A stretch of 64,000 nucleotides of DNA from Candidatus Altimarinota bacterium (GTDB lineage: Bacteria > Patescibacteriota > Gracilibacteria > UBA1369). The stretch is from contig OY782391.1 in assembly GCA_963677745.1 (NCBI GenBank), positions 736,001-800,000 of the forward strand, given 5' to 3'. Within the stretch, counting starts at the first letter, position 1. Every line of letters starts with the position of its first letter. Positions 5,982-57,180 of the stretch are shown one piece after another. Position numbers and translations under genes: made by a program. The notes below the pieces were generated by a model. It was not told the origin of the DNA and did no database searches. It was given only the letters and a program-made list of their open reading frames with translations.

Positions 5982-7802
5982 TTATTGGTTAATGAGTAAG
6001 GCTTTTTGTTTGGAGATGTGTTTGGCGCGGATTTCCGTATCCAGCTTGGCGTCACCCTGATAACCGATTTCTTCGTCGCATCTTGGACAATAGTCGTGTT
6101 CGCCGGCGATATAACCGTGCTTGGGGCAGATCGAAAAAGTCGGGGAAATGGTGATATAGGGAAGCCTGAAACTGCTCAAAGCCCGTTTTACCAGTTGACG
6201 GCAGCTTTCGGCATCATGCAGCCGTTCACCCAGATAAAGATGCAAAACTGTGCCCCCGGTATATTTGGTTTGGAAACGGTCCTGCATCTGAAGTGCTTCA
6301 AATACATCGTCGGTGTATTCCACCGGAAGCTGGGTGGAGTTGGTATAATAGGGATAATCGGTAGTGCCGGACTGGATAATATCGGGATAGCGTTTTTTAT
6401 CCTCCTTGGCGAAACGGTAGGTGGTGCCTTCGGCCGGACTGGCCTCCAGGTTGTAAAGATTGCCGGTTTCTTCCTGAAAACGGATCAGTTGCTGCCGCAT
6501 AAACAGCAGAATTTCTTCGGCGAAATCGCCGCCGAACTGGGTGGTGATATCTTCTTCCCCGCCGGTGAAGTTCTTGATGGCCTCGTTCACGCCGTTGATG
6601 CCGATGGTGGAGAAATGGTTGTTCAGGTGACCCAGATAGCGCTTGGTGAAGGGGTAAAGACCCAGATCCATCCATTTCTGGATTTCTTTTCTTTTAAGTT
6701 CCAGGGAGGTTTTGGCATATTCCATCAATTGTTCCAGCCGGGCAAAAAAGCCGACCTTGTTGCCGCGGTACAGATATCCGAGCCGGGCGGTGTTGATGGT
6801 CACCACTCCCACGCTGCCGGTCATCTCGGCGGACCCGAACAGGCCGTTTCCCCTCTTCAGCAGCTCATTCAGATCCAGCTGCAGACGGCAGCACATCGAG
6901 CGTACATGGTGGGGTTTCAGGTCGGAATTGAGGAAGTTTTGGAAATAGGGCAAGCCGTATTTGGCAGTCATTTCAAAAAGAGAATCGGTATTGGGTCCGT
7001 ACCAGTCGAATTCCGGGGTGATGTTATAGGTGGGGATGGGGAAGGTGAAAACACGCCCTTTGGCGTCGCCCCGGAGCATCACTTCAATATAAGCCTTGTT
7101 GATCATTTGCATTTCCTTTTCCAGCTCGCTGAAGGTGTATTTGAAAGGTTGTCCTCCCAAAAGCAGCCGGCGGTCTTTCAGGTCGGGGGGGCAAACCCAG
7201 TCCAGGGTAATATTGGTAAAAGGTGTCTGTGTCCCCCAGCGGGAAGGAACATTCAGGTTGAACACAAAAACCTGGATGGAGTCATAGACGTATTTATAGG
7301 TTTTTTTCTCCACATAGTCTTCCAGTGCGGCCGCGTCGGCTACCATGTCCTTGAGCTCATCACGGGTCTCCTCGGCGTACTTGCGCACATAGGGGGCCAG
7401 ATAGGTGTCGAAAGAGGAAAAGGCCTGTGCGCCCGCCCACTCGTTCTGCAGAGTGCCCAGAAAGTTGACCATCTGACCGATGGCGCCGGCCAGGTTGCGG
7501 GGAGGAGTTGAATCTATTTTATTTTCAATACCGTTAAATCCTTCTTCCAGCAGTTGCCGGAGAGACCAGCCGGCGCAGTATCCGGAAAACATGTCCAGAT
7601 CATGTATATGAAAGTCCCCTTCGCGATGGGCCTTGCCGACTTCTTCAGGGTAAATATAGGATAGCCAGTAGTTGGCGGTAACTTTTCCGGATGTGTTTAG
7701 AATCATCCCGCCCAAAGAATATCCCTGGTTGGAATTCGCGTTTACGCGCCAGTCGGATTTCGAGAGATACTCCTCCAGAGTCTCCCTTGCCTCAATCGCC
7801 AT
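5982..7802 (-). CDS. nrdD: Class III ribonucleotide reductase catalytic core (no ATP cone, no glycyl-radical loop)
   Basis: DWRVNANSN, HIHDL, GYCAGW, SMCCRL, NLEASPAE, YTGG, CPKHGY..CPRC. ATG at 7802 is preferred because the GTG at 7826 falls inside an NrdR box. Confidence 0.93.
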   Translation of the reverse strand: MAIEARETLEEYLSKSDWRVNANSNQGYSLGGMILNTSGKVTANYWLSYIYPEEVGKAHREGDFHIHDLDMFSGYCAGWSLRQLLEEGFNGIENKIDSTPPRNLAGAIGQMVNFLGTLQNEWAGAQAFSSFDTYLAPYVRKYAEETRDELKDMVADAAALEDYVEKKTYKYVYDSIQVFVFNLNVPSRWGTQTPFTNITLDWVCPPDLKDRRLLLGGQPFKYTFSELEKEMQMINKAYIEVMLRGDAKGRVFTFPIPTYNITPEFDWYGPNTDSLFEMTAKYGLPYFQNFLNSDLKPHHVRSMCCRLQLDLNELLKRGNGLFGSAEMTGSVGVVTINTARLGYLYRGNKVGFFARLEQLMEYAKTSLELKRKEIQKWMDLGLYPFTKRYLGHLNNHFSTIGINGVNEAIKNFTGGEEDITTQFGGDFAEEILLFMRQQLIRFQEETGNLYNLEASPAEGTTYRFAKEDKKRYPDIIQSGTTDYPYYTNSTQLPVEYTDDVFEALQMQDRFQTKYTGGTVLHLYLGERLHDAESCRQLVKRALSSFRLPYITISPTFSICPKHGYIAGEHDYCPRCDEEIGYQGDAKLDTEIRAKHISKQKALLINQ

Positions 7803-8831: not shown

Positions 8832-10715
8832 CTATATTACAGCCATATACTTAGAATATATTTCTTCAGCTGTCAATTGACGGCCGGACCATTTTAAAAT
8901 TTTAGCGTCCATAAAGATGCCGGTTTTTGCTGTGATATATTCGCACATTTGCGCTTGTTGATTCATTTCCACGCCGATTTTCCATTTACACCGGCTTAAG
9001 ATCTTCTTTACCTCCCTGCCGTGGAAAGGGACAAAGTAGGTGATTGGCAGCAGATTGGCTTTTACGCCGTCTTTTTTGAGCATCTGCAGCACTTCCAGCA
9101 AAGCATCTTTGGGCGACCCCCAGGTCACAAAAGTCACATCCGCTTTCTCTGCCGGATAGGCGGGACCAGCTGTAAACGATCCGTCCCTGGCCGGACCGAT
9201 CAGCTTGGGGGCCGGCAAGTCTTTCAGACAGGATTCCAGTTTTTTTAGCCGTTTGGCATGCATGGCAATGCGGTTTTCTTCAGTCTCGGTCAAATCTCCG
9301 CTCTCGTCATGTTCATCGCTGGAGGAGCGGTAACGTCCCCCTTTTGTTCCAGGCAGCAGGCGGGGCGAAACTTCGTCGTCGGTAAATTTATAACGCAAAA
9401 ATCCGCCGTCAGGCGATTGGTGTCCCAGTTTTTTAAGTGCTGCCACTCTGGCCGGATCCCGTATCAGTTTTCCCCGGTCGATTTTCAGTTCTTTTGTAAC
9501 GAATGGCCTGATATTTTTAATGCTTTCCGAAAGGTGTTTATCGCCCAGAATTATTGCGGGCATCTGGTATTTTTCCGCCAGATTAAAGGCTTCAAAAGTT
9601 TTGTAAAACAGCTCGTCAAAATCCCCCGGTGCCACTACCAGTCTGGGAAATTCCCCCTGCGAAGCATGAATCACAAATTGCAGATCGCTCTGTTCGGTGC
9701 GGGTCGGGAGTCCGGTGGAAGGTCCTCCGCGCTGTGCCTCATAAATCACCACCGGTGTTTCAGTCATGCCGGCAAAACCCAGGGCTTCGGACATCAGTGA
9801 AAACCCGCCGCCCGAGGTGGCGGCCATGCTTCTGGCGCCGGCCCAGCCGGCGCCGATGGCCATATTTATGGCGGCCAGCTCGTCCTCCGGTTGTTTGACA
9901 ATAATATTATAATCCCTGGCGGCCTTGGCCATAAAATGCAGCACCGAAGAAGCCGGAGTCATCGGATATTCAGCCACCAGTTTCACGCCGGCCCTGATCG
10001 CTCCCAGACAAACGGCATCGTTTCCTGTCAGCAGCAGGCGGCGCGGCTGTCCATTTACCGGGCGCAGGCCAAAACCAAAAGTGGTCACATCAAAATTTTC
10101 AACTACATAATTATAGCCCGCCCGCGCCGCCGCCAGATTCTTCTCCACCGTCTCCGTACCTTTCCTGGCAAAGTTCTCTTTTAAAACTTTTAATAATAGT
10201 TGTACCGGCAGTCCCAGCAATGCCAAGACGGCTCCTAGTCCAACTACGTTTCTGGCTGTGGACAGGCCTGCTTTTTCAGCCAGTCTGCTCAAGGGCACAT
10301 CAAAAATCAGACGGCCGTTACCGGCAGTCCCAATCCCCTTTTTCCACCCGCCCGGGAATTTATAATCGGGTGTTTCTGCGCCGTCATAAATGACGGCGCC
10401 CCCCTGGGCGATTTCCCTCAGATGCAAATCCAAAGTCTCCGCATTAAGAGCCAACAGTAAATCAACCTTATCCTTGTGTATGGAAACTTCAAAATCGGCA
10501 ACTCTGATCACGTTGGAATTATGTCCGCCGCGAATCAGTGAAGGATATTCAGCGTTACCGAATACCGAAAGTCCCGCCCGCGAACAGAGCAGTGCCATCA
10601 GGTGTCCGGCGCTCTGAATTCCGCTTCCGGCCTCCCCGCCGACCATCCAGTTCAAATCATTGATTTTTTTCCGGGCAACCGTTTTTCCACCGGTTCCGGG
10701 GGCCGCTTCTTTCAT
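8832..10715 (-). CDS. korA: 2-oxoacid:ferredoxin oxidoreductase alpha subunit (gamma-alpha fusion)
   Basis: GGEAGSGI, EYPSLIRGGHN, YPMTPAS, EDELAA, TSGGGFSLM, QRGGPSTGLPT. Confidence 0.93.
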   Translation of the reverse strand: MKEAAPGTGGKTVARKKINDLNWMVGGEAGSGIQSAGHLMALLCSRAGLSVFGNAEYPSLIRGGHNSNVIRVADFEVSIHKDKVDLLLALNAETLDLHLREIAQGGAVIYDGAETPDYKFPGGWKKGIGTAGNGRLIFDVPLSRLAEKAGLSTARNVVGLGAVLALLGLPVQLLLKVLKENFARKGTETVEKNLAAARAGYNYVVENFDVTTFGFGLRPVNGQPRRLLLTGNDAVCLGAIRAGVKLVAEYPMTPASSVLHFMAKAARDYNIIVKQPEDELAAINMAIGAGWAGARSMAATSGGGFSLMSEALGFAGMTETPVVIYEAQRGGPSTGLPTRTEQSDLQFVIHASQGEFPRLVVAPGDFDELFYKTFEAFNLAEKYQMPAIILGDKHLSESIKNIRPFVTKELKIDRGKLIRDPARVAALKKLGHQSPDGGFLRYKFTDDEVSPRLLPGTKGGRYRSSSDEHDESGDLTETEENRIAMHAKRLKKLESCLKDLPAPKLIGPARDGSFTAGPAYPAEKADVTFVTWGSPKDALLEVLQMLKKDGVKANLLPITYFVPFHGREVKKILSRCKWKIGVEMNQQAQMCEYITAKTGIFMDAKILKWSGRQLTAEEIYSKYMAVI

Positions 10716-15202: not shown

Positions 15203-15383
15203 CAATCAGTTTCTTTTCAGGTTTTTTCATTTCTCAATTCTCTCCGCCTTTACACGGCAGTTTATGTAGACCAATAGTGAAGAAGACCTGAGGCCAAAAT
15301 ACCTTCTATAAAGCGGAGATCTGTTGTTTCTATTTGCCCCCAAAAATGCTAAAATAATAAGATTATTATTTTTAACAGCGGTC

Positions 15384-18300
15384 ATGGACGGGCGGAATTT
15401 ACAAAAAGCGCTGGAAGAAAAACTCCTGGCCGGAGAAATCCGGGAAGCTGAAAATCAGGAAACCGGGGTTACGGAACTGGAAACTCAGAGAGCCGAAACG
15501 CCGGAAGTCCAGGCGGAAAACGATCAGTTAAACCAGCTCCTTTCCGACACGACCAACAAAATTAATTTCACCAGAGATCATCTCAAAATATTTGAGCTGC
15601 TTTCCCCCGGGGAAAGGGATCAGCTGTATTTATCGATAGCTGCCACCGACAGCCTGCAGGTCAAAGATATTGATTGGGAGAAGCTTTTTCAGCATCCCGA
15701 CGCCCACGCTCTACTTAAGACTATCCTGGCTATACCCGGAAGATTGAGTCTGCAAAGCGAACAGGACATAAAGATGATCTTGAAACTCCATGATGAAATT
15801 GGTCCGGCCAAACTTAAAGCCACCTGGAAAAAACTTGGCGAACCGCTGCTGGAGCGATCGTTTGTGTCACAGATCGAATCCGACCGGAAGTCCTTTGACT
15901 GGTCCAGATTTTATCTTTATCTGGTAATCGGCAGTTTTGAAAAGTCCACACTTAATCAATTGGAACTGCTTAGTGAAGCTCAGTTGAAAAAAATTGAACT
16001 GGTTTTAAAGGTATACGGCAAAGCCGAGCTGGAAAAACAATGGACCCCGGAAAACCTTGAAGATTTTGAAGAGCTGGAACAAATGAACGGGAATTATCAG
16101 CGGGATAGGGAAGATTTGCTCTCTGCCACCCAATTTACCGAAAATCTTTCCCCGGAAGTTATTAGACATCTTCCCCAGGAAACGGGAGGCGGAAGCGGTA
16201 CCAGCAGTAGAAAGAGACCCGATCACACCATCTGGCATTTCCAGGGAATTCATGGGAAATACGACCAGCTGATTAGATTTCAGAGATGTCTCGGTGTCCT
16301 TCCCACGGAACGGCTTGACCGGATATTGTCTGTCTTGAAACCAAGTAAATATCCGGTGCGTGAACCGGCTGAAAATATTTCTCTGGGACAGGCCGATAAT
16401 TTTTTGCAATTTGTCCAAACGGCCCGGCTGGAAGGCCGGCTGAATCTGGAACAGCTGTTTGATAATGCGGTGTCTTTTTCTCCCGAAAAATATGTTCCCA
16501 TAAAAGGCTTTCTCGCTTTTTTGGAAAATCAACATCTCTCCAATTCAATCACTGAAATTAATTTTCCGTCCTTCCTGAAAATGATCGGCGAGTCCACTGC
16601 GCAGGAAATAGAACAAATCAAAACAGGTACTGTCAAATACTGCGAACTCGGTTTGGCCAAAATGATCAACTGGAAACAGAACTGGGGCGACTTGCTTAAA
16701 AAAGTTAGTTTGCCGGAGTCCGAGACAGCTAATCAACTGCTCAAAGACTGCGTTGAACATCATGAGCAATATGTAGGGAAAAGGTATAGCGGCGAAAGAA
16801 ACTTCTCTCTGCTGAATCGCGATGGGAGCTCAGTTCTTGGTCTTTATGAAGCCATAAGCCAGATTGAAGAATATTTTCGGGACGATCAGGAGTTGATGTT
16901 TAAAATTGGGGAACTGGGTGAAGATAAGATGGAGATTATCCGGCTGGTTTTAAACGGGCAATATAAAAAAAATGGCAGTAAAGAATATGATTTGCCGGTG
17001 TTGGAAGGACTATTGGTCCAAATGCCCGGCCGTCTTCAATATGTAAAACCGATCCTGGACAGGGCCAAGACCTTATCTTCCGAACAGAAAAGGAGTCTGT
17101 TTTTTTTAAGCTCCTATTTTCACTCTTTTTGGGGGCACTTAAATCAACAAAATCTTTCCATTCTGGAAACGTATATAAACAGCGGTAAGGCACGGCAAAT
17201 GGAAGAATTTTTGAAAAATTTCCCAATCAAGGGGTTCGGCCCCGAAACCATTGAGAAAATGGCGGACTCCGGAGGGCCGGCAACGCTTTTTGCCTATATC
17301 GACCCGAGGAAATACAAGCCGGAAATTTTAACAGCGATTATCGACAAACTGATTGCCTTCCATTCCGCGGGTATGGACAAAAGACTCTATGAAAACCCAA
17401 CTCAAAACGGAATAAATCCGGAAAATATTTCACTGGAAAACCTTCTTTCCGTTGATGTCGGGAAATTTGTCCGCATAGCCAATTTTCTGGCCAATTACAA
17501 CTGCACTGATCCTCTTTATTATCTCACTAATTTAAACTTTGACGAAAGTGAGGAAAAACTGATGCGTAGGATCAGACAGGCTTCGGCGACCGATTATTTC
17601 TGGAACTACAGGGAAACCGTGCTTGACGAAGAGGACCTGCTTGTGCTCGAGAAAGAACAACTGAAAAAACAGACGGAAATCAGGGAGAGGATTAGTTTTG
17701 CGGGAAAACTATTTGGGGCAAAACTGACGGGAGAAAAAATTAAAAACTTAGAAAGTTTGGCAGAAGCGGTCTGGCAAAGGCTCAAGTCCAATCAAAAAAT
17801 TCTGGAATTATTCATTGAGACTTCTGGCAGAATAAGTCTGCGCGAGGAGGCCCTGGCTCTTTCTGACGCAATGCTGACTGAACCGCTTGTCTGGCAATAT
17901 CATCTACTTGAACAAATTTTTGACGACGCACTCATGGAAAGTGCGCTTCAAATGATTCTTGAATGTAAAAAACAGGGCGTAGAAGATATTTTCAGGGAAG
18001 AAAACTCTCCCAGTCGTATTGATCTCCGTGGATTGACCGAGGTAGCCAAAGTTTGGGATGAAAACAGGGAATATCTGCAGGAGCCGGGTTTTCTGAAGAT
18101 ATTTGAAGGGCGCGGGGGTCTGCTTCGAGATTTTCTCAACATCAAAGACTCTTCAAAAAACAATTATCTTCCTCCCGCCCTGCGAAATAACGATCTGGAA
18201 CCGGATATGGATGAAAATCAGCAGCGGAAAATCTTGCCCTGGCTGCAGCACTTTGATGTCGAGAACGGCTGGGACTGGAAAGCCTTTATAAAGTGGATAG

Positions 18301-21300
18301 AGGACAAAAATTACCAGTTGCCCCCGGATGAAATCCTTTCGGTACTCCATCAATATCTGGGAGAAAGGATCCCCTATATTTTTGCGAAAGCCATTATCGA
18401 GCGTTGTAACAAAGGTGAGAAGCCGGAAGATATTTGTGCCGGACTGGATAACGGTTCTTCAAAAAATGATGAAGACGGTATTGATAATTACAGATGGAGA
18501 GATGCTAGAAATGACAATTATTCCCGGCAGATTCAGGCAATTCTTGGCAACGACGCCGAATTTACCTCAAAACATCTTACCGTGGGGCAGTGCGAGCAGG
18601 CTCTGAAAATGTCCAGACAGCAGCTGGAAAACCTCTGGAAAATGGGGGTGTTAAAAAGCCGCGGAGAATTTAAATATCCGCAGACAAATTGGGACAATGC
18701 TGTTTATATTGCCAACCATCCCAACTTTGATTTGATTGCTTCCGCCGACAATGATGGTTATCTATTTCTTCCCCTGTTCAGGGAGATTCCGGTCAGGATT
18801 CATTTTTTCTGTGACCGGATCGACTGGGACATCCTGCAAAAATGGCAAGACGTGCAGGCGGAGATGAAGCTTGATCTGGTCGACAGTGTGGACTTTTTCA
18901 ATTATCCCGGTCATCAGGAGATCATTGAATTTGCCGGACATTTGAAAGAAATTCTGGGGAAACAATTGCAGGTTTCCGCCTATGACCTGCTGATCATGGA
19001 CGTTCAGAAAGACCTCCCTCTCCTGAGAGAACTAAAGACAAACTGCGCACTCGGCCTCTCCGAGGACAATCTGAAAGCTTTGGCGGTTGCGTCCAGTGGG
19101 GAAATGCAAAACACAATCAAAAAAGTATTGTCGATACTGGACAACACCAGCCAGATCGACTACGGCCTGGCTGCCGAAAAAATCGGGGAGATGAGTCCTG
19201 GCCTCCGCTATGCGGTTCTAAAAAACAAAGGGATCTCAGCCTTCGGGCCGGATATTTTACGGTTCAAAGATCAGGTCAGGCAGCTCCTCAGCCGGGAGGA
19301 GTGGACGAAATTTGTGAGAGAACTTTTTGCGGAAAAGCACGACGCCTTCAATACGGAAGTGGATTTTGACATGGCCAGTATTATTCTCACCGACCCGTCT
19401 TTTGTTTTTACGGAAGAAAACGATTGGTATTTAAACAAGTTTCTCGATCTTTTCCGGGCCTTTAACGGCTCGGAAAAGGAATGGACGGATCTGATTGATC
19501 TGGCTGGGGATGACAGATTGGCCTGCACCTTCAAACGTGACTGGAATTCGATAGCTTCCGGGTTGAAAAAAAATCTTAGATACTGGCGATTATTGAAAGA
19601 CCGTAACACTGAACTTTTTTTCCAGCATCTGAAAGAATCGCCGGCTTCACTGGAGATTGAACAGGAATACCTGGAAAAAGCCATCGGATCGGTTTCTGTC
19701 ACCGGTTTGCATTTATTACTGGAACAGCATGAAAAGGGGCTGCTTGGTCTGACGGATGTTCAGACCGATCGAGTCCTGGTCCGCTACCTGTCCATCGGCG
19801 GACAGATATTCAGGCTGATGGAAACCGAATTCAACAAAACTTCTTTGGAAAAATTGTGGATAAAAACAGTCAATGGTTGGCCGGACTTTCCATCTCGGGA
19901 AAAGTTTCTCGGCAAAACCGTCACCACTGCCTTATCAACTACGGACTTTGGTCAGATTACGTTGCCCGCTCAGGCAGAGGCCCAGATGATCCAGGCTTTT
20001 ACTTCGGACAAACTGGATGATCCGGAGATAAACCGGTCACTTGGCACGCGTCTTTCCGGTTTCGGAGACACTGAAATTTCAGCAATCAGCCGCGTTTATC
20101 TAAAAAACAACATCAATAAACTGCAGCTTGATTATAGTAAATCCGGTCAACTTGGACTGCAGCCGGACAATTGGCTGGCTGTTCTGATGGCCTACATAAA
20201 AATCGCCGAAGATCTTGAAGAGGGTGGAAATTTTCACCCGCCCCTAGCGGAAACAATCCAGGAAATCTTTAAGGATGATCAGAATAAGGATTTTTGTCTG
20301 AAACAACTGGAAGGGCTCTGGAAAGAATATCTTTCCGGAGGGTCAAAAGAATCAATCCCGGCCAACCTGCTGCTGCTTGCCAACTTTGTCCGCAGGGCGG
20401 AAGGTGCGGGGCCGCTCAGTAAAATCGAGTCGATGCTTTTAATGGTGGAGGCCTACCTGCAGGCACAAAGGGGGCCCAACACCGCGCCCCGCACCAAGGA
20501 AGCACTGTTTGCCGGACAGAAAGATCTGGGGCGGCGCTTTGAAAAAGAACGCTGGTCCGAGGACGACCGGGCCGATTTTCAGAATATTTTCCGGACCATC
20601 ACCCTCGCCGCCCCCAGTCTGGCCACGGATTTTCTGGAAATGTTTAAAAAAATGAATCTCAAGGACATCAAAAAGTTCATGTCGGAACTTTTCCCGCTGT
20701 TCAATGTGGAGATTCTGATGATGGAGAAGGGACAGGGCCGGCCGGGCGCCCGTCACGACCTTCGTTCCTTAGTCGGATTGCGAAAAAAAATCAGGGAAAT
20801 CAAATCCCGCCTCCAAACCGGTTCAGCCAGTTTTGATCAGGAAAAACTGGATCTGATAAAAGATATCCAGCAACGTTTCCAGGCCCGTTTTGGCATAATC
20901 AAAACCCCTCAGGCTTTTGGAGCGGAACAGTTAAAAGCCTTGATTAACTGCAGTGTTTATCTCTCCAATCTGGTCAATCCCACCGATCAGAAACAGTGCA
21001 TTCTGGCTTTCTATCTGGCTCTTATTTTAAACGGTCAATGGGAGTCTTTCCGCAGGGGGGAATCAGTTGATCCGGGTGAATATATGAGTCCGCCGATTGC
21101 AGCAAGACTCACGGAAGTCATGGAGGGTAGACAGAAAATGCTCGACGGTTTATGGGCTCATTCAGGCATTCGAGAAGAGGACCAGTCCAAATTTCAGGAA
21201 TTGTTACAGACGGAAGAAGCGGTGATTGAAATAGGTAACGTTGAGACCGTGGATGTAAAGTTGGCAAATCTGGCCATCAACATGAAACGACTGGAGGATC

Positions 21301-22565
21301 CGGATCTTTACCCGGCACAACTCGACCGGGACCGGATGAAATTACTGGTGGAATTCGGCAATAAAAAAGTTGGTGCCGTCGTTGCCAAAACCTATCTTTC
21401 CCTTACCGGCAAACAGGTGGAATTGAACGAAGATGAGCAGCTACTGCGTCAGGAGATTGAACGGATCTTGATCGCTAATAATCTGCCTTTGCAAGCAGAG
21501 ACGGTCAAAAAACATTTCCAGGAGGAAATGAAGCCGCTGGCCTTGATCAGCAATGTTTTGTCTGACATCAATAATTTGAAAGTGGAAGAAGAAATCGAGT
21601 CACTGCGTAACCTTTTGCGCCCCGGCAATGAAATTATTTCTATTTTCAAGAGACTGGGAGAAGATTTTCAACCCGCCTCCGGCGCCTTGGCTCTTTCACA
21701 GGACCTGGATTTTTTGGACAACCTGATTGTTAAAAAAGAGGCGGTCTTGCAGGAAAGCGAAAAACGTCTGCTCCAGCAATACATTTCCGGAATCCGGGGC
21801 CAATTGGTCAAACTGGAAGGAATATATCAGCAGCTCAAACTTAAATTTGCCGGCGTCAAAGGAGCGCAGCACGGCAACGAACTGCTCAGGAGCAAACTTC
21901 AGGAAATTGACAGGATTCTCAACACCACGGACAGCGGCCAGGTATCGGTCAGCAGCGTGATGACCAATAACCTCAGCAATATAATCGAGAATATTCGCGA
22001 ATGTTTGTCCTGTGTCAGAAAAGGCATCAACAATGACACCAACTTAACCTTCGGCGACGGCAACAAGTTTTTTCTCTACAGTCATTCGGAACTCCAGAAG
22101 AGGGGCAGTCTGGCCGACCAGATTTTATTTTTGGAACCGGTTAGCTATGGACAGCCCACAGATCCTACAGAACAAGCGGAAACCTCAGACCGGGCCGGGG
22201 AGATAGTCCCAGCTCAGACAGAACTGGCTTTCGTTCTCGATCGTCTGTACGGCAACTGCACGCCGTTTGTTTTGATTAACCACGTCAAGGCGGTTTATAA
22301 AAAATATAAAGTAATAAAAGACAATTTCCCCGGAGCAAAACTTTCAATTTTTGTTTCCGAATCTGCCTTTCGGTCTTCCGGTACAGACTCCGGTCTTCTG
22401 GCGACACAATTATCAAATGCCTTGGGCAAAGAAGTTATCATCACGCCCTCCCAGGCAAAAGTTTACGTTCTTCCCTCCGCTCAGGGCGATCATTACGTGG
22501 AATTTGGCGGCGTGGCCAGGACCTCCGGCGAAAGAACGGTTAGTGGGTTGAAAATATCACTTTAA
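15384..22565 (+). CDS. Giant (~2390 aa) hypothetical protein
   Basis: Uninterrupted 7.2-kb ORF. ATG at 15384 follows a TGcTAAAAT extended -10 element. No signal peptide. Confidence 0.85.
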   Translation: MDGRNLQKALEEKLLAGEIREAENQETGVTELETQRAETPEVQAENDQLNQLLSDTTNKINFTRDHLKIFELLSPGERDQLYLSIAATDSLQVKDIDWEKLFQHPDAHALLKTILAIPGRLSLQSEQDIKMILKLHDEIGPAKLKATWKKLGEPLLERSFVSQIESDRKSFDWSRFYLYLVIGSFEKSTLNQLELLSEAQLKKIELVLKVYGKAELEKQWTPENLEDFEELEQMNGNYQRDREDLLSATQFTENLSPEVIRHLPQETGGGSGTSSRKRPDHTIWHFQGIHGKYDQLIRFQRCLGVLPTERLDRILSVLKPSKYPVREPAENISLGQADNFLQFVQTARLEGRLNLEQLFDNAVSFSPEKYVPIKGFLAFLENQHLSNSITEINFPSFLKMIGESTAQEIEQIKTGTVKYCELGLAKMINWKQNWGDLLKKVSLPESETANQLLKDCVEHHEQYVGKRYSGERNFSLLNRDGSSVLGLYEAISQIEEYFRDDQELMFKIGELGEDKMEIIRLVLNGQYKKNGSKEYDLPVLEGLLVQMPGRLQYVKPILDRAKTLSSEQKRSLFFLSSYFHSFWGHLNQQNLSILETYINSGKARQMEEFLKNFPIKGFGPETIEKMADSGGPATLFAYIDPRKYKPEILTAIIDKLIAFHSAGMDKRLYENPTQNGINPENISLENLLSVDVGKFVRIANFLANYNCTDPLYYLTNLNFDESEEKLMRRIRQASATDYFWNYRETVLDEEDLLVLEKEQLKKQTEIRERISFAGKLFGAKLTGEKIKNLESLAEAVWQRLKSNQKILELFIETSGRISLREEALALSDAMLTEPLVWQYHLLEQIFDDALMESALQMILECKKQGVEDIFREENSPSRIDLRGLTEVAKVWDENREYLQEPGFLKIFEGRGGLLRDFLNIKDSSKNNYLPPALRNNDLEPDMDENQQRKILPWLQHFDVENGWDWKAFIKWIEDKNYQLPPDEILSVLHQYLGERIPYIFAKAIIERCNKGEKPEDICAGLDNGSSKNDEDGIDNYRWRDARNDNYSRQIQAILGNDAEFTSKHLTVGQCEQALKMSRQQLENLWKMGVLKSRGEFKYPQTNWDNAVYIANHPNFDLIASADNDGYLFLPLFREIPVRIHFFCDRIDWDILQKWQDVQAEMKLDLVDSVDFFNYPGHQEIIEFAGHLKEILGKQLQVSAYDLLIMDVQKDLPLLRELKTNCALGLSEDNLKALAVASSGEMQNTIKKVLSILDNTSQIDYGLAAEKIGEMSPGLRYAVLKNKGISAFGPDILRFKDQVRQLLSREEWTKFVRELFAEKHDAFNTEVDFDMASIILTDPSFVFTEENDWYLNKFLDLFRAFNGSEKEWTDLIDLAGDDRLACTFKRDWNSIASGLKKNLRYWRLLKDRNTELFFQHLKESPASLEIEQEYLEKAIGSVSVTGLHLLLEQHEKGLLGLTDVQTDRVLVRYLSIGGQIFRLMETEFNKTSLEKLWIKTVNGWPDFPSREKFLGKTVTTALSTTDFGQITLPAQAEAQMIQAFTSDKLDDPEINRSLGTRLSGFGDTEISAISRVYLKNNINKLQLDYSKSGQLGLQPDNWLAVLMAYIKIAEDLEEGGNFHPPLAETIQEIFKDDQNKDFCLKQLEGLWKEYLSGGSKESIPANLLLLANFVRRAEGAGPLSKIESMLLMVEAYLQAQRGPNTAPRTKEALFAGQKDLGRRFEKERWSEDDRADFQNIFRTITLAAPSLATDFLEMFKKMNLKDIKKFMSELFPLFNVEILMMEKGQGRPGARHDLRSLVGLRKKIREIKSRLQTGSASFDQEKLDLIKDIQQRFQARFGIIKTPQAFGAEQLKALINCSVYLSNLVNPTDQKQCILAFYLALILNGQWESFRRGESVDPGEYMSPPIAARLTEVMEGRQKMLDGLWAHSGIREEDQSKFQELLQTEEAVIEIGNVETVDVKLANLAINMKRLEDPDLYPAQLDRDRMKLLVEFGNKKVGAVVAKTYLSLTGKQVELNEDEQLLRQEIERILIANNLPLQAETVKKHFQEEMKPLALISNVLSDINNLKVEEEIESLRNLLRPGNEIISIFKRLGEDFQPASGALALSQDLDFLDNLIVKKEAVLQESEKRLLQQYISGIRGQLVKLEGIYQQLKLKFAGVKGAQHGNELLRSKLQEIDRILNTTDSGQVSVSSVMTNNLSNIIENIRECLSCVRKGINNDTNLTFGDGNKFFLYSHSELQKRGSLADQILFLEPVSYGQPTDPTEQAETSDRAGEIVPAQTELAFVLDRLYGNCTPFVLINHVKAVYKKYKVIKDNFPGAKLSIFVSESAFRSSGTDSGLLATQLSNALGKEVIITPSQAKVYVLPSAQGDHYVEFGGVARTSGERTVSGLKISL

Positions 22566-24573: not shown

Positions 24574-25164
24574 ATGAGAAAGATCATGTGCACGTTGGTC
24601 CCGGCAGTCTTCGTACTGCTCACGGCCCCGGCGGCACGGGCGGATACTACGTCGAAGTGGAGCGGTACAGAAGTTCTGACCAGCGCCCAGACCAATTTCT
24701 CGGTCTTCCGGGCCTCGGCCACGCACTTCTGGATCCCGAAAGCTGACGTCAACATCCTCATCAGCTACTTCGGACCCAAGCTCAAGCTGGGCGACTGGGG
24801 ATGGATCTCTCCGCAGATCGGCGCTGCCGCCAACTGGAAGAACCGGAAGGATTTCTTCGACGCCTCTCTCTGGGCATTCGCGGAACACAAGGGTTTCTCG
24901 ATCTTCCTGGAGGGCGACTACTTGTTCGCGAGGGGTCAGAAGCCCGACATCTACTCCTTCGGTAGCCTGGACTACGGCTGGTCCCGTTACAACGCCGGTA
25001 TTCATTCCGAAGGCGTGAACCAGCACTTCGGGTTCGGCCCGCATCTGGGCATCTCCAAGAATCAGGGCGAATGGAGCTGGCATGGCGAAGTGCAATACTA
25101 CGCCAAACCCGATGGCGACACCGTCGGACACGCCATCCGTATCGTAAACGGATTCACCTTCTAA
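24574..25164 (+). CDS. Secreted beta-strand-rich protein resembling a small outer-membrane beta-barrel
   Basis: Sec signal ending ARA/D, alternating hydrophobic and aromatic strands, C-terminal IRIVNGFTF. TTC/ATC/AAG/TAC codons dominate. Confidence 0.7.
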   Translation: MRKIMCTLVPAVFVLLTAPAARADTTSKWSGTEVLTSAQTNFSVFRASATHFWIPKADVNILISYFGPKLKLGDWGWISPQIGAAANWKNRKDFFDASLWAFAEHKGFSIFLEGDYLFARGQKPDIYSFGSLDYGWSRYNAGIHSEGVNQHFGFGPHLGISKNQGEWSWHGEVQYYAKPDGDTVGHAIRIVNGFTF

Positions 25165-25326: not shown

Positions 25327-25785
25327 ATGTCGAATAAACTGACCATGGGCGAGGATAGCGAAACCCCCAAAATTACCAGACAGGAAGTGGTTGACGCTCT
25401 GCGCAAAGGTAAAGCAAGCGGCGAACCCAGTCCTTACGCCGATGGCACGCCTGAGGCCGCAGCGGCTCAGGATCTTCTGGATAAATGGTATAAGCAGGTT
25501 GAAGAGGACTCCAAAGCTGTTGGAACCGAAGTAGCCAAAATTGCAGGAGTAGTGGAAATGAATACCATCCTGATAGAAGCCGGATATAACGACCCGGAAA
25601 TGCTCGGCCAGGCCATAGAATGGCTCTATAACGACCTTTGGCAAGCTCAGGACCTGGGGCCGGAAGGTGAAGATTTATATATTCAAATCGCGGACAAAAT
25701 CATGGAACTGGAAGGCCCTGACGGACAGGAATTGGACGAAGATTCTCAGGACGAATATGACAGAATAAAAGCCTCCCGTAAGTAA
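25327..25785 (+). CDS. Acidic hypothetical protein
   Basis: 152-aa ORF downstream of TGgTATAAT. Confidence 0.7.
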   Translation: MSNKLTMGEDSETPKITRQEVVDALRKGKASGEPSPYADGTPEAAAAQDLLDKWYKQVEEDSKAVGTEVAKIAGVVEMNTILIEAGYNDPEMLGQAIEWLYNDLWQAQDLGPEGEDLYIQIADKIMELEGPDGQELDEDSQDEYDRIKASRK

Positions 25786-31553: not shown

Positions 31554-31595
31554 TCCTCTCCTGATTACGACCAGAGGAAAATGAAAAAACACTTT

Positions 31596-39759: not shown

Positions 39760-40443
39760 TCACAGCTGGTCAGAATGATGGATGATGTCGTCCGGCCGGG
39801 TCGAGATCACCTTGAAGATGTCCCCCATTTCCTCTGACGAGGCCATCCTGGTGAATCTCACGTTCGCCAGGGCAAATATCTCCATGATATGCAGGACCCA
39901 GAGATTCCACTGCAGATCGTTGAGAGGCCCGTAATACGGCGACGTGATGTATCGTGTCTCCATGATCTTGGGACCGCCGGGAGTGGGGATGCTCGTCATG
40001 ATCCGGCCACAGTCACGCCTGTTCACCACGATCTGAACATCGGGGCAAACGGAGGGCTTGTGATGGCGACGGACCGGCAGCTTCAGCAGGTCTTCACCTA
40101 CCAGCATCAGGGCCTGAAGGTTGATCGAGGCCGAGTTGCAGATGTTGGTCTCTCCCACCTGATAGCCGCACCAGTCGAGCAGCTCTACAATGATTCGCAC
40201 CAGCTCATGCCTCAGAAACATGGGGATTCCCAGTTCCCAGGCATTATGGAGGAACCACGGTTGGCCACGAGTGGCCGACAAGAATCCCATCGGCTGAAAC
40301 CAGCATTCGGGATCTTCGCGAATCAACGCGACTCTTCCTTCTGCTTTCAGCACCAGATGTGTCGCATCTTTCAGCGACCTGCGCGTTCCCCGGTCATCCA
40401 GATAGGGATTCCACTGTCCCGGGAAAAATTCGACTTGATTCAT
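39760..40443 (-). CDS. Hypothetical protein with atypical codon usage
   Basis: 227-aa ORF with its own TTGACT-N16-TAAAAT promoter (40539-40512), hairpin leader and GC-rich 3' hairpin. Confidence 0.65.
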   Translation of the reverse strand: MNQVEFFPGQWNPYLDDRGTRRSLKDATHLVLKAEGRVALIREDPECWFQPMGFLSATRGQPWFLHNAWELGIPMFLRHELVRIIVELLDWCGYQVGETNICNSASINLQALMLVGEDLLKLPVRRHHKPSVCPDVQIVVNRRDCGRIMTSIPTPGGPKIMETRYITSPYYGPLNDLQWNLWVLHIMEIFALANVRFTRMASSEEMGDIFKVISTRPDDIIHHSDQL

Positions 40444-41036: not shown

Positions 41037-41123
41037 GGGCGGGTACTCAAGCGGCCAACGAGGACAGACTGTAAATCTGTTGACTTCTAGTCTACGAAGG
41101 TTCGAATCCTTCCCCGCCCACCA
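41037..41123 (+). tRNA. tRNA-Tyr (GTA)
   Basis: GGGCGGG acceptor stem, ACAGACT-GTA-AATCTGT anticodon arm, long variable arm, GGTTCGAATCC, CCA end. Confidence 0.96.
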
Positions 41124-41293
41124 TGAAAAAACAGTCTCAGCAAAGCTGAGATATTTTTTTCATTGGGGAAGGATGAGAACCATAGGTTCGTTGACTGCAG
41201 CGAGCGAAACACAATCTGAAAATTTGTTTTCAGATTGTTGAGCGAGCAAAGGAACCCAAATGCGCAGCATTTGGTACACTTCCCCGCCCACCA
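41124..41293 (+). repeat. Hairpin-rich insert ending in a 15-bp direct repeat of the tRNA-Tyr 3' end
   Basis: cttccccgcccacca occurs at 41109-41123 and 41279-41293. An inverted T-arm copy lies at 41165-41180. Confidence 0.8.
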
Positions 41294-41435
41294 GAATAAA
41301 AACGCACCCGCCGGGTGTCTTTTTATTCAAATTTATCCACTGATTATATTGTCATTCATCTAACAGACCGGAAGTTGACGGGGGGAGAGAAAGATGTTAA
41401 ATTGAGTGTCCGTTGTGATTTACAATTATAAACTT

Positions 41436-48756: not shown

Positions 48757-50202
48757 ATGGCACCAGGTGACGGTAACCCATCAATGGATTCCCCGGTCAA
48801 GGCCGGTGATCAGGCCAGAGTGGAGGCTGTAGAAGCCGCCAAGAGATTTGAGGAACAACAGAAAAAGGCCGAAGAAGAATGGAAAAGACAGCATGTTGAG
48901 GCTGCTACTGAAAGACGTGAGGCTGGACGTGATGCTGTAAAAGATAGTGCCGCCAAAGCACGTGAAGGTATATTTACCCCTGCACCCGTAGCGTCAGCCG
49001 CTCCAACAACTGCACCTTCAACTTCTGAGACCGTCCCTGCTCCTTCGACGAGCCCGGAAGCCGCCCCTCAGGCTGCCCCGGCTCCTGCGGCGACCGCACC
49101 GGCAACTCCTGCGCCCGCTCCCGGTACAACGCCGGCCCCATCAGCAGCTCCCAGCGCTGCTCCTGCCGCCGCACCAACACCATCAGCTGCACCAACCGCC
49201 GCCCCCTCAGCAGCACCAAGTGCCGCACCTTCATCCGCTCCATCATCAAATCCCACCACGACTCCCACCAGCTCCCCTGCTGCGACACCGGGGGCGTCAA
49301 CCCCCACCTCCGGCACGGAAGCACCTCCGGTTCCCCCTCCTCCGGCGGCAGAAGAAGGCTTTGGGGGGAAAATCAAAGAATTTTTCAAAACTTTTCTTGC
49401 AGGAATGTTTGGCGGAAAGATGCCTGACTGGTTAAGTAAATTTTTTGGCGGGAAAGACACGGGCACAGCTACAGCATCAGCTTCCTCCACACCCTCCTCA
49501 ACGCCTGCAGCGTCACCTTCGGGCACATCAGAAAGTTCTCCTGAAAGCGGAAAAAGCTGGCGTGAAGTAGTCAACGCCGAAGCAGCCAGACTTGGTATCG
49601 AGCCGCCTTTTGCGCTGGCCATCGTCACCGTCGAGGCGGGCAAGGAAGGAATACAAAAAGACGGCAATCCCACCATCCGTTTTGAACCCGGATATTTCAA
49701 CAGATTACTGGCCAAAAAAGGCGTCAACGAACGTCATGCCACAGCCAACGGTTACAGTGACAGAAAAGTCGACGGAATCTCCTGTGAAGGAGGACAGGCC
49801 GCCGAGCAGGCCTGTCTGGCCAAAGCAATTTCCATCGATCCCGAGGCTGCCTATCAGTCGGTCAGTATGGGCCTGGGACAGATTATGGGTGAGTATTCAA
49901 AGTCAGCCGGCTATCCGACCGCCGAGGCCATGTATAAGGCCTTCAGTGCTTCCGGTGGTGGAGAAGCCGCCCAAGTGAAGGGCATGTTTAAAATTATCGA
50001 AGGCAGCCCCGCTCATCTCAGGGCCGCCCGCAACAAAGATTTCAGTGCTTTTGCCAACGTTTATAACGGCGCGAAAGTAGGTACTCCCAAACACAGCCAA
50101 TACATGGCGGCCCTGGAAAGAGCCTACCGCAATAATGGCGGAACCGGTGGATCCGGTACGGGTAGTCGCCCCTCCTCCGGCAGTCCCAGCGCAGTGGCGT
50201 AA
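48757..50202 (+). CDS. N-acetylmuramidase (DUF3380/PF11860-like) with a long Pro/Ala/Ser/Thr linker
   Basis: AIVTVEAG..G.P.IRFE..YF, SVSMGLGQIMG, FANVYNG. APSAAP repeats at ~49130-49250. Confidence 0.85.
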   Translation: MAPGDGNPSMDSPVKAGDQARVEAVEAAKRFEEQQKKAEEEWKRQHVEAATERREAGRDAVKDSAAKAREGIFTPAPVASAAPTTAPSTSETVPAPSTSPEAAPQAAPAPAATAPATPAPAPGTTPAPSAAPSAAPAAAPTPSAAPTAAPSAAPSAAPSSAPSSNPTTTPTSSPAATPGASTPTSGTEAPPVPPPPAAEEGFGGKIKEFFKTFLAGMFGGKMPDWLSKFFGGKDTGTATASASSTPSSTPAASPSGTSESSPESGKSWREVVNAEAARLGIEPPFALAIVTVEAGKEGIQKDGNPTIRFEPGYFNRLLAKKGVNERHATANGYSDRKVDGISCEGGQAAEQACLAKAISIDPEAAYQSVSMGLGQIMGEYSKSAGYPTAEAMYKAFSASGGGEAAQVKGMFKIIEGSPAHLRAARNKDFSAFANVYNGAKVGTPKHSQYMAALERAYRNNGGTGGSGTGSRPSSGSPSAVA

Positions 50203-52473: not shown

Positions 52474-52658
52474 ATCGTAATTTAGTTCTATTTATTATTT
52501 ATTATGTATTTTGAAGGAACTTTACTTCAACTAATTTCATTATACCACGAAACTAGTAAAACATTCTTACATAATATTTACAAAAACACAAGGAGTGTTG
52601 TCCAAAAGCCCCTTCTCGAACGGAGTTTCCGGCTTGGTGGAGGGGATTTGGAGCTAAC

Positions 52659-53030: not shown

Positions 53031-53834
53031 TTATTCGCTTTGCACCCCTTTCAGAAAACCCTCTCTATATAAATAACTGAGCACCCGTCCGTCTTCGCTG
53101 TACTTTTCCAGAGCTTCCCCGACGCTGATTTCCCCGGCTTTAAGCATCCGGATAATTTCATCGGCCTGCCGTTTGGAGTGTTTGTGCATTTTGTCTTCGC
53201 GCACGATCAAAGACATTCCGATGGTGAATATCACTGCCATCATCATCCAGAACACCGATCTTTCGATTTCCACGCCCAGTGTTTCAAAGGACAGTTTGAC
53301 GCCCACAAAAAACACCAGTTGATAAGCCAGATCCTCCAGTTTCGGAAATCTCTCAATGGCTTTTACAAAGTATCCAGAAAGATATCTCATCAAAATAATT
53401 CCCATTATTCCGCCAAACCACAACACCCACAACTTATCGCTGAAAGCCACGGCGGTGGTAATGCTGTCGATCGAGAATACAATGTCTGTCAGTTCCACGG
53501 CCAGCACCACGCCCCAGAAAGCTTTGGCGGTGGAGTAGGTTTTAACCTCTTTTTCTACCCCGATCCCAAAAAACATGTGCTTGATGGCCAGATAAATCAG
53601 ATATGCGCCGCCCAGCAGCTTGAACACCGTGAATTTAATCAGGTAAGTCGCAAAAATCAGGGCGATAAAACGGAAAATAAAAGCTCCCCAGATACCATAA
53701 CGCAGGGCTTTTTTTCTGGTGTTTTCCGGCAGCGGACGCACCAGAATCGCCAACACCAGGGCATTGTCCACCGACAGAATTCCTTCCAACAGGGCCAGTG
53801 TGACTACCGTCAATATGTCGTGAACATCAAACAT
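53031..53834 (-). CDS. TerC family membrane protein
   Basis: LEGILSVDNALVL, GAFIFR, ELTDIVFSIDSI, GIILMR, FPKLE. Confidence 0.92.
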   Translation of the reverse strand: MFDVHDILTVVTLALLEGILSVDNALVLAILVRPLPENTRKKALRYGIWGAFIFRFIALIFATYLIKFTVFKLLGGAYLIYLAIKHMFFGIGVEKEVKTYSTAKAFWGVVLAVELTDIVFSIDSITTAVAFSDKLWVLWFGGIMGIILMRYLSGYFVKAIERFPKLEDLAYQLVFFVGVKLSFETLGVEIERSVFWMMMAVIFTIGMSLIVREDKMHKHSKRQADEIIRMLKAGEISVGEALEKYSEDGRVLSYLYREGFLKGVQSE

Positions 53835-55360: not shown

Positions 55361-55747
55361 AATTGGTTAATAGATACCAGGTCTGATCGCTCCATGAGGG
55401 GTAAAGCAATGGGGGCAGCCATTGCCGACCGGCCAAAAAAGCCACTTTGTTGTGCAACTAAATCATACTTTATAACCTAAGAAATAAGCTGCCGCCAGAT
55501 TAACACAGGAGTGTTGTCGTGCCAAGAAAAATAGACTTGTGTAGGAGTTTGTGTTGGGAGTATATTCCCGCCTTGCCTTAAAAGGCTGATATTTGATTTT
55601 TAGAACAATTTTTAACCGTAATCAGGAGAGGGCTCTCTGCCGTTAACCAGAGATAACTCCCCGGAAGAACTACGAAGTGGCAAGTTTGGGCACTTGTAGT
55701 CAACCGGAGTGCTGCGTGAACCGGCGAGAGTTCACTCTCTGTCGGTT

Positions 55748-57055
55748 AAGGATTGGTACAAGTCAATGAAGCAGATCAATGTGATCAACTCTCTGACTGT
55801 CGCTGGACTGCTGGCCGCGATCTTCGGCGACGAAAACACGTCGCCGGTTCAGATCAAACTCCAGCGCAACAAGGTTGCGGAGAAGACAGGCCGGTGGGCA
55901 TGGAGCGTCTCGCTGCCTCTGAAAAACGGGGAAGTCGAGAACCTCTTCGAGTCGCTGATTCTGCGTTCGCTGCAGGTCACCAACGACGAGCTGCCCGCCA
56001 CTCTCACCATCACGGCGTGCGCTACGAATGTTGGGTACGAGCCCTGCTTCCAGCTCATCAACTGCACCTTCCTCAAGCGCGGCGTGCGCCGGCTGCGAAG
56101 AGCGTTCACGGAGACCATGGAACGCTGGGAAGCTGCGCGCGGTTGCGTCGCCTGTGCCTGGGAGGTGGGGGGACTTCAGATTCAGACGGAGCTCAAAGCC
56201 ATCCAGCTCAGCCAGTGTGATTCTCCCGGTCTCGTTCACAGCCTTCAGGTCAGGATGCGACCCGTCAACTCTCAGAAGGGGCTCCTGGCCATCATCAAGG
56301 CACAGAGCGAGGACGCCCTGGTGTTCTTCGATTTTGATCGCTCCCTGGCCGAGTCAGGGTTCCGTTCAGCCGTTCAGCAAAAACTGGAGGACTACCTGCG
56401 CAACCTGATCAAGAAGGGCATGGCCGAATGTCTCGACCAGATCCAGGAAGAAGTGGTCGGGTACCACCCCACAATTCTGCTGAAGACACTTTTGGAACTC
56501 GGCGAGCAGCGGGAACGGGTGGAAGAAGCTGGAATCCCCATTACGTTCAATCACCTCCTTCCCGAGTTGATTTCGCGTCTGCAGGAATACCTCGACTACA
56601 AGAAGCAGGCGGAGAAGCCGGGGATTCCCATCACCTTCAACGTCTACAGGTCCGGCGCGCTGGTCGGGAAGCACACCCTCTCCAACAAGGTCATCAAGAT
56701 CGGCCGGACTCCCGGAGATAACGTCGTCCCGCTCCAAGTCAAGGACACTTTCATTCCCGGCATCCACTCCGTGATCGAACAGAGCTGCGGGAGGATCTGC
56801 CTGATCGATCTGGCTACCGAGCTGCCGACATTCGTTAACGGCGAGCCGGTGCCGGGCAAGCGCAACCTGCACAGCGGCGACCAGATCGGGGTGGGAGACC
56901 TCTTCACCATCAAGGTGGAGTTCCAGGAAACCGCCACCGATGACGTCCCGGCCCAGGAGGCCTTCGCTGCACCTGACCCCGAGACTGCTTCGTCGCAGTT
57001 CGACAACCAGCCCGCCTAGTCACCCGCAGTCGGCCCGGCCTTTGTACCAATCCTT
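55748..57055 (+). repeat. Perfect 14-bp inverted repeat bracketing the FHA gene
   Basis: aaggattggtacaa (55748-55761) and ttgtaccaatcctt (57042-57055). Confidence 0.85.
55766..57019 (+). CDS. Protein with a C-terminal FHA domain, GC-rich
   Basis: VIKIGR...IHSVIE...LIDL...TFVNGE..LHSGDQIGVG. ATG at 55766 follows AAGGA. Confidence 0.8.
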   Translation: MKQINVINSLTVAGLLAAIFGDENTSPVQIKLQRNKVAEKTGRWAWSVSLPLKNGEVENLFESLILRSLQVTNDELPATLTITACATNVGYEPCFQLINCTFLKRGVRRLRRAFTETMERWEAARGCVACAWEVGGLQIQTELKAIQLSQCDSPGLVHSLQVRMRPVNSQKGLLAIIKAQSEDALVFFDFDRSLAESGFRSAVQQKLEDYLRNLIKKGMAECLDQIQEEVVGYHPTILLKTLLELGEQRERVEEAGIPITFNHLLPELISRLQEYLDYKKQAEKPGIPITFNVYRSGALVGKHTLSNKVIKIGRTPGDNVVPLQVKDTFIPGIHSVIEQSCGRICLIDLATELPTFVNGEPVPGKRNLHSGDQIGVGDLFTIKVEFQETATDDVPAQEAFAAPDPETASSQFDNQPA

Positions 57056-57180
57056 TTGCTCTTCGTGAGCGTCTGGTCTGCCAACCAGAAAATCTTCGAC
57101 AGGGGGAAAATAATCACCGGCCGGGCAGGGTCGGTGATTTTCAATATCCGTTGATTCTAAAATATTTCCCAGCCGGAAGC

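Follow-up and report, generated by a model that had tools for sequence, protein, structure and literature searches.

Genes enclosed by complementary sequences, or accompanied by large structured RNAs, are known from several settings. MITEs and transporter insertion sequences (IS) carry a single passenger gene of atypical codon usage between perfect short inverted repeats, with no transposase inside. Intervening sequences (IVS) of rRNA are excised by RNase III, and in the leader of the MS2 maturation gene a set of hairpins lies within a pairing by which the initiation region is concealed. Silencing of bacterial mRNAs through pairing of their ends has been established chiefly for those of short toxins. 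For aapA3 of H. pylori, metastable hairpins are reported to be followed by a 5'-3' long-distance interaction, which is removed by 3' trimming (PMC6733600, where MS2 is mentioned as well). For HEARO/omega-RNA and IscB, PMC9755519 places a large structured RNA in the 5' UTR of a gene whose product carries an RRxRR stretch and Zn-binding motifs, and PMC4990558 describes IVS of 23S rRNA with an ORF in an inverted-repeat stem loop within a structured RNA.

The locus described here lies in a window of 64,000 nt (the whole stretch of DNA that was analysed) and consists of a 417-codon ORF with a structured RNA of ~160 nt before and ~100 nt after it. Like aapA3/IsoA3 and hok/Sok (PMC6733600), it would pair the initiation region of the full-length mRNA with sequence after the stop codon, by prediction in our case, and it would have an earlier, weaker upstream pairing over the same region during transcription. 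In contrast to these type I toxin-antitoxin systems, the ORF encodes a soluble-looking protein of 417 aa and not a peptide of ~30 aa, against a toxin criterion of less than ~60 aa; the stem contains no clear Shine-Dalgarno (SD) sequence, and the conserved RNA is much larger on both sides. No antisense RNA was identified, and the promoter scan at its threshold gave no site on either strand. A structured RNA upstream of an ORF whose product has an Arg-rich stretch and Zn-binding-type motifs is also reminiscent of HEARO/IscB (PMC9755519). Rfam, however, gave no HEARO match, and neither the window protein nor its relatives matched RuvC, HNH or RRXRR families of Pfam or NCBIfam; the RNA here continues past the ORF, and there was no sign of IS200/IS605 mobility. 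A RuvC-like fold was not among the listed matches of the fold searches with the N-terminal model, which was searched whole, alpha/beta part included. The enclosure of an ORF by an inverted-repeat stem is shared with the rRNA IVS (PMC4990558), but the host RNA is neither rRNA, for which the window has no match, nor any Rfam family, and the protein is unrelated. With MITEs and transporter IS the locus has in common a single gene of atypical codons between perfect short repeats and no transposase inside; it differs in that the repeats are not terminal, have no target duplication, occupy a fixed site and are single copy in the DNA examined. Unlike the MS2 leader, finally, it belongs to a chromosomal DNA gene, and the final clamp would come from 1.28 kb downstream. 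Searches of the literature, mainly openly accessible papers with supplementary motif tables outside their scope, returned no description of this RNA. We regard the observation as real and RNA motif and protein family as undescribed so far, best classed as a variant of long-distance mRNA silencing.

The 5' arm of the repeat, AAGGATTGGTACAA, occupies 55748-55761 on the plus strand, 4 nt upstream of the ATG at 55766. Its exact reverse complement is found at 57042-57055, the first base being the 23rd nucleotide past the stop codon (57017-57019), and the additional pair G55762.U57041 lengthens the long-range stem from 14 to 15 bp, so that its arms span 55748-55762 and 57041-57055. Both arms are identical in the orthologous locus described below. 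The initial annotation had pointed out this repeat and its one G:U extension, together with hairpins at 55669-55700, 55719-55747, 57058-57070, 57072-57089 and 57112-57139, and all of them are indeed present in the sequence. Length alone does not make the repeat rare, since 20 perfect inverted repeats of at least 14 bp occur within the window. A perfect repeat joining the flanks of a gene (60 nt before the start against 120 nt after the stop) reached 14 bp for this one of 43 genes, the next best being 10 bp, and exceeded 12 bp in none of 5000 shuffles. Analytically, the chance of a 14-bp flank complement is ~3e-5 per gene and ~1e-3 over 43 genes. By duplex energy the window ORF ranked first among 58 genes (z -4.5, 0/200 shuffles) and its orthologue third (z -3.3, 1/200 shuffles).

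In folds of the full-length RNA the long-range stem formed in both genomes, with a mean pair probability of 0.92-0.97 over 11-13 of its pairs in the window and of 0.73-1.0 per pair in the orthologue. According to these computations, the long-range helix and the hairpins flanking it are predicted to form in both genomes. The panhandle proposed in the initial annotation is supported, as far as the stem is concerned, by folding in the two genomes and by plus-strand G.U-type changes in neighbouring stems, but the pairing does not join the ends of the transcript: outside the arms, conservation extends over ~140 nt on the 5' side and 85 nt on the 3' side, which makes the stem an internal helix of a larger two-part RNA with the ORF in its loop. 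The same annotation had placed the repeat over the ribosome-binding region; this holds by position, but in the arm the SD-like AAGGA is separated from the AUG by 13 nt. SD-like sites are absent from most window genes, and as the stem contains no well-placed SD, any blocking of initiation would be steric. Covariation had been suggested as a check on orthologues; the long-range stem, identical in both DNA sequences, shows none. No second copy of leader or trailer was found in 85,245 nt (window plus orthologous contig, one copy per genome), where models of leader and trailer picked up only generic terminator hairpins and self-palindromes besides. A 15-bp match to the leader at 31555-31569 was put down to chance, as it falls within coding sequence of no relation to the leader and stops at these 15 bp.

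On its 5' side, the RNA is preceded by a candidate sigma-70-type promoter (TTGTGT-18 nt-TATATT, 55537-55566, plus strand), a speculative assignment made by eye to which similar hexamers in the orthologous locus correspond; the promoter scan at its threshold gave no site on either strand. Transcription from this promoter would be predicted to start at ~55572. The presumed 5' end is an invariant block of 12 nt (55565-55576), identical in the orthologue, which could reflect conservation of promoter and start site or could pair with the loop of hairpin B. A poorly conserved spacer follows (55578-55604, 12/28 columns identical), and then the 5' half proper (55605-55765), with 155 of 165 columns identical over 55605-55768. 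Its first element is an upstream anti-arm (55606-55618) that can pair with 55743-55755, where hairpin C ends and the 5' arm begins (8 nt of the arm are included), both in the consensus fold of the two leaders and in leader-only folds of the window. In such leader-only folds, the rod comprising the anti-arm and the long-range stem are mutually exclusive. In the leader-only minimum free energy (MFE) fold of the orthologue the same arm is buried by a different, non-conserved upstream segment. Three hairpins lie between anti-arm and 5' arm. Hairpin A (55623-55639) is short and resembles hairpin C in sequence; none of its 6 pairs varies, it is weakly supported, and other local folds compete in this region. 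Hairpin B (55646-55717) is long and irregular with a stable apex at 55669-55700, and shows two one-sided G.U-type changes in the orthologue. Hairpin C (55719-55747), with a UUCA loop, sits flush on the long-range stem and is a perfect 13 bp in the orthologue.

On the 3' side, a variable linker (57020-57040) separates stop codon and 3' arm, 21 nt long here and 64 nt in the orthologue, with 18/64 columns identical. The arm is followed by hairpin D (57057-57071), in which a U.G pair at the base became C-G in the orthologue, by hairpin E (57072-57089), which has an invariant CUGCCA loop, and by the weak hairpin F (57094-57106, U.G to U-A), for which the window MFE favours other pairings. The U-A to G-C double change in hairpin E is the only two-sided change seen in DNA. 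An 11-bp terminal hairpin with short U runs on both strands closes the RNA (57112-57141); it is identical in the orthologue, loop included. A terminator scan gave a terminator-like match at 57120-57135, beyond the 3' arm, and the terminal hairpin is likely a terminator common to the ORF and the convergent flippase gene. Hairpin C, the long-range stem, D and E are arranged consecutively with linkers of 0-1 nt. Among the invariant loops, loop B could form 5-6 bp with loop E, and so could loop E or a segment of A with the terminal loop. This complementarity can serve as a lead only; matches of five bp easily arise by chance. Both halves were more stable on the plus strand than their shuffles (z -2.96 to -3.97), the 141-nt core of the leader reaching z -3.41 in the window and -3.95 in the orthologue. 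On the minus strand the leader was similarly stable, the trailer less so.

Related loci were sought with two peptide patterns in GTDB species genomes (185,579), and 1 of 36 pattern matches was confirmed. This sole confirmed orthologous locus (L001) is on CAZNDB010000002.1, a contig of an uncultured Candidatus Peribacteria bacterium (MAG). The two genomes agree in gene order: a divergent gene, which from its sequence we take to be serine hydroxymethyltransferase-like (glyA-like), then the ORF and a convergent flippase gene. The window would thus most likely come from a related CPR genome. At fourfold-degenerate sites the genomes were 0.37-0.61 identical over 7 orthologue pairs, and the ORF itself showed 60% protein identity with 78/132 fourfold sites identical. 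The leader (55605-55768) was 94% identical and the trailer (57041-57141) 91% (93/102 columns); past the last hairpin this fell to 26/61 columns. Three other intergenic regions reached 41-56%. Two further 5' regions of the same genome pair were as conserved, however, the one upstream of an RNase J gene (132/141) and the glyA leader (102/112), so that conservation between two genomes is by itself not distinctive. Among 65 modelled pairs, 5 have a change in one partner, in every case through G.U on the plus strand, and 1 has changes in both; these counts do not beat their own shuffles and have no statistical power, because there are two sequences and the structures were derived from them. Two pairs were broken in the orthologue, the helix-end pair A55656-U55710 of the window MFE and G55667-C55701. 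As computed, the non-coding halves are under constraint at the nucleotide level, and for the leader this reaches a relative with 30% identity (P0005, below).

Some neighbouring regions deserve mention in their own right. The glyA-like leader (window 55361-55470, orthologous contig 9595-9706, both minus strand) has no Rfam match and no excess folding stability and is a candidate regulatory leader. The AT-rich region upstream of the gene that is presumably RNase J-like (window 52474-52614, orthologous contig 7485-7623; 132/141 identical) is a candidate autoregulatory leader or small RNA. Between these two genes the window has a TerC-family gene (53031-53834, minus strand); the corresponding, shorter gap of the orthologous contig contains no ORF of at least 120 aa that matches it. 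At 48757-50202 (plus strand) the window encodes a low-complexity protein with a C-terminal N-acetylmuramidase domain, and the gene in the same position of the orthologous contig (4176-5366, plus strand) has a different-looking C-terminal domain; cell-wall hydrolase modules have possibly been swapped here.

The deeper conservation of the leader was read from a protein. P0005, a relative of the window protein that is 30% identical and lacks the FHA domain, carries a 31-residue N-terminal extension ending VHSLSVKDWYKH-M, and in the window, translation of the frame in front of the ATG gives VHSLSVKDWYKS-M. Eleven residues of the extension correspond to 55730-55762 with zero nucleotide changes (11/11), whereas the next best of 127,934 sites needs 10; for a block of 19 residues, 7 changes are needed at the leader against 19 at the next site. 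The matched segment runs from the 3' side of hairpin C through the complete 5' arm, which reads KDWYK in P0005, and lies at the same distance from the AUG. The extension is probably a translated leader resulting from a mis-called start, to judge by this match. Since 11 of 11 leader "residues" recur at the same spacing, the leader is deeply conserved, and so is where it stands with respect to the start codon. For residues 1-9 the best position is 55672-55698 in the apex of hairpin B, where the protein would imply a change of C55673-G55696 to U-A, and in hairpin C the three minimal changes it implies would all keep pairing. Taken alone, residues 1-9 are weak (a distance of 5 for the top site, 55672, against 6 for 8 sites), and residues 13-19 fail to single out the leader site. 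That the leader encodes a genuine peptide (VHSLSVKDWYK, starting at an upstream GTG) was considered and rejected: the 36 nt are all identical in both genomes, third positions included, and a 1-nt indel just upstream shifts the frame, so that the GTG starts are not homologous. These two points make a conserved peptide unlikely; moreover, both close homologues start at ATG 55766. A protein search with translated leaders for other cargo ORFs returned 2 matches among 2610 candidates, both already known, and is a weak search because it requires a mis-called start and admitted E up to 10.

The ORF (55766-57019, plus strand, 417 aa) begins at the ATG that is the start in both close homologues and has a GC3 of 0.79, the highest of 43 genes, with neighbours at 0.56-0.57. 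The locus had at first been called an FHA gene. A profile match to FHA is there (PF00498, E 1.3e-7, 32.4 bits against a cut-off of 20.7), but it covers only residues 311-377 of 417 (56696-56896), and the core of the family is a 285-residue N-terminal domain (55766-56620). The phosphothreonine-site motif of canonical FHA domains includes a Ser and an Asn. Both appear replaced here, and the domain is probably non-canonical; within NCBIfam it comes closest to the FHA stretch of GltG. When 1.84 billion representatives were searched with a profile, 1605 proteins had E up to 0.001, with 150 matches listed, among which at least six (P0002-P0007) cover the N-terminal domain and the others the FHA region only. 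P0003-P0007 are 23-33% identical and have no FHA domain, and of the at least 8 known members of the N-terminal-domain family the FHA add-on is found in 3 of 8. A further expansion of the family among 8000 candidates yielded 3 proteins, all known. The N-terminal domain has a conserved basic helix, KRGxRRLRRAF, and a CxxCxxYH motif in 4 of 5 distant members, which would suggest nucleic-acid binding. It matched no Pfam, PHROG, NCBIfam or PADLOC family; a PDB sequence search gave a best E of 0.036, ESM Atlas no usable match, and tblastn against phages and plasmids none. After a first structure model from 3 sequences (pLDDT 50) had been set aside, the model used had a pLDDT of 86.5. Foldseek found nothing for it at E up to 0.001. 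Its best structural alignment was to an MHC-I-like platform of a sheet and two helices (Z 7.8, rmsd 3.3 over 101 residues), and a wide VIA fold list contained helical-hairpin matches with Z up to 7.3. Both are within the range of common arrangements, and the former is below what the tool rates as distinctive.

Our preferred reading, to which we give a probability of about 45%, is that the full-length mRNA is silenced in cis by an RNA clamp over its initiation region. The transcript would carry a single gene, and its two untranslated ends would together make up one structured RNA, in which a helix of 14-15 bp closes a loop formed by the ORF. During transcription, the sequence preceding the AUG would be held by the upstream segment; when the 3' half has been made, the long-range helix would replace this pairing and stack between hairpins C and D. 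The full-length mRNA may then be stable and poorly translatable, with the helix 4 nt from the start codon, until translation is triggered. The trigger might be cleavage by an endonuclease, trimming of the 3' end or the binding of a protein, for which the basic N-terminal domain encoded by the ORF itself is a possible candidate. The invariance of the 3' arm beside a linker that changes from 21 to 64 nt would be in line with such a clamp, and the conserved spacing of 4 nt to the AUG points to control of translation. A plain translational clamp, however, needs neither invariant loops nor 260 conserved nt, and there is neither a well-placed SD to be sequestered nor a promoter past the scan threshold. 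As the simple clamp leaves the invariant loops and the conservation at sequence level unexplained, the main rival sees the product of the locus in the RNA, which would be an independent non-coding RNA, ribozyme or RNP of ~260-300 nt with the ORF as an insert in one loop, comparable to rRNA IVS or to ORFs encoded in introns. Excision of the ORF, whether by RNase III or autocatalytic, might leave an RNA in two pieces or a ligated one, and this RNA may be bound by the encoded protein. The helices C, long-range, D and E joined by 0-1 nt, the invariant and mutually complementary loops, the retention of sequence and not just pairing in a relative of 30% identity while the cargo gains or loses FHA, and the Arg-rich helix and CxxCxxYH motif (4/5 distant members) of the protein would all fit. 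Yet neither genome gave an Rfam match beyond chance at E up to 10, no core motif of a hammerhead, group I/II intron, RNase P, SRP or T-box was present on the plus strand, nor a tRNA or tmRNA, the conserved spacing of 4 nt to the AUG favours control of translation, and five-bp loop complementarity easily arises by chance; we consider this rival unlikely, if to be kept in mind. Still more doubtful is its wider form, a class of ORF-in-a-loop RNAs in CPR bacteria, two-part and with tertiary loop-loop contacts, in which the RNA is itself the functional unit, self-processing or RNP-forming, with a fast-evolving protein of unassigned fold that binds it, and which possibly swaps cargo or moves between genomes. 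If the RNA were the functional unit, it would be a new class of non-coding RNA, of a kind missed by searches of intergenic regions because the ORF splits it.

Two other readings take the repeats as something else than a clamp, and both appear quite improbable. A non-autonomous mobile or invertible DNA cassette, with the 14-bp repeats or the whole hairpin-rich flanks as signals and its enzyme elsewhere, would agree with the GC3 of the ORF compared to its neighbours, with the sparseness of the family (1 locus in 185,579 species genomes by two peptide patterns) and with invariant perfect repeats that suit a recombinase. The terminal inverted repeats of such a cassette had been offered in the initial annotation as the alternative to a panhandle. 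They are disfavoured since the repeats are internal, with conservation extending 140 nt to the left and 85 nt to the right, since no target duplication exists at the conserved borders in either genome, as had already been remarked for the window, and since site and orientation are the same in two genomes with a fourfold identity of 0.37-0.61. A second copy was likewise not found in the 85,245 nt. Furthermore, no attC core sites (RYYYAAC/GTTRRRY) were matched in leader or trailer of either genome, the G.U-type changes fit pairing of a single plus strand, and the same codon style is found in at least three other orphan genes that lack this RNA. In the last reading, equally remote or slightly more so, the two halves are independent ordinary elements whose complementarity is incidental: upstream a leader, for instance a riboswitch or a leader that binds a protein, and downstream a terminator within a 3' end rich in hairpins. 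Other 5' regions of this genome pair are as conserved, deep conservation was seen for the leader only, and perfect repeats of this length number 20 in the window; against this stand the low chance of a flank complement (~3e-5 per gene, ~1e-3 over 43 genes) and an invariant 3' arm next to a variable linker. Were the cis-acting clamp to be true, a two-part RNA of 260 nt silencing across 1.25 kb would extend the mechanism to proteins of ordinary size, and its presence in reduced CPR genomes with few regulators would suggest a product that is harmful or tightly timed.

Several known RNA classes were considered for the locus as a whole. Patterns for the cores of hammerhead, group I/II, RNase P, SRP and T-box RNAs gave no match on the plus strand. 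RNase P RNAs of CPR bacteria can be diverged and missed by models (PMC8172020); a diverged RNase P RNA was nevertheless rejected here, as the core motifs were absent and E-value searches gave no hint. A retron was rejected in view of repeats that enclose a 1.25-kb ORF and of adjoining genes for a flippase and a serine hydroxymethyltransferase-like protein, and an Obelisk or viroid-like rod in view of a branched MFE fold with 26 hairpin loops and ORF windows at z -2.3 to +1.0 relative to synonymous shuffles. Rfam, at gathering threshold and at E up to 10, returned only chance matches in both genomes, and ARAGORN no tRNA or tmRNA at the locus. Where leader, core or trailer had any blastn match in phages and plasmids, it was short and weak.

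The codon style of the ORF recurs in at least three orphan genes without this RNA. Two of them, at 39760-40443 of the window (minus strand, GC3 0.71) and 19513-20556 of the orthologous contig (plus strand, GC3 0.77), have no flank clamp, and both have SD-like sites in a largely SD-less genome. A third, at 24574-25164 (plus strand, GC3 0.79 from ATG 24574), has a weaker leader/trailer clamp of 8+5 bp that ends 2-3 nt before the ATG and starts 4 nt after the stop (-23.1 kcal/mol, 2/200 shuffles), and may be a second case of end pairing in the same gene class. A small ORF close by (25327-25785, plus strand) is flanked by a 10-bp perfect inverted repeat, 14 bp with G.U, whose arms are 10 nt upstream of the start codon and 3 nt downstream of the stop codon (z -3.5, 0/200 shuffles). 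The window further contains an ORF of 2413 aa with no evident family (15324-22565, plus strand) and, at 41037-41330, a 13-nt repeat of the 3' end of tRNA-Tyr (at ~41280-41292) with hairpin-rich DNA between, which may be an integration scar.
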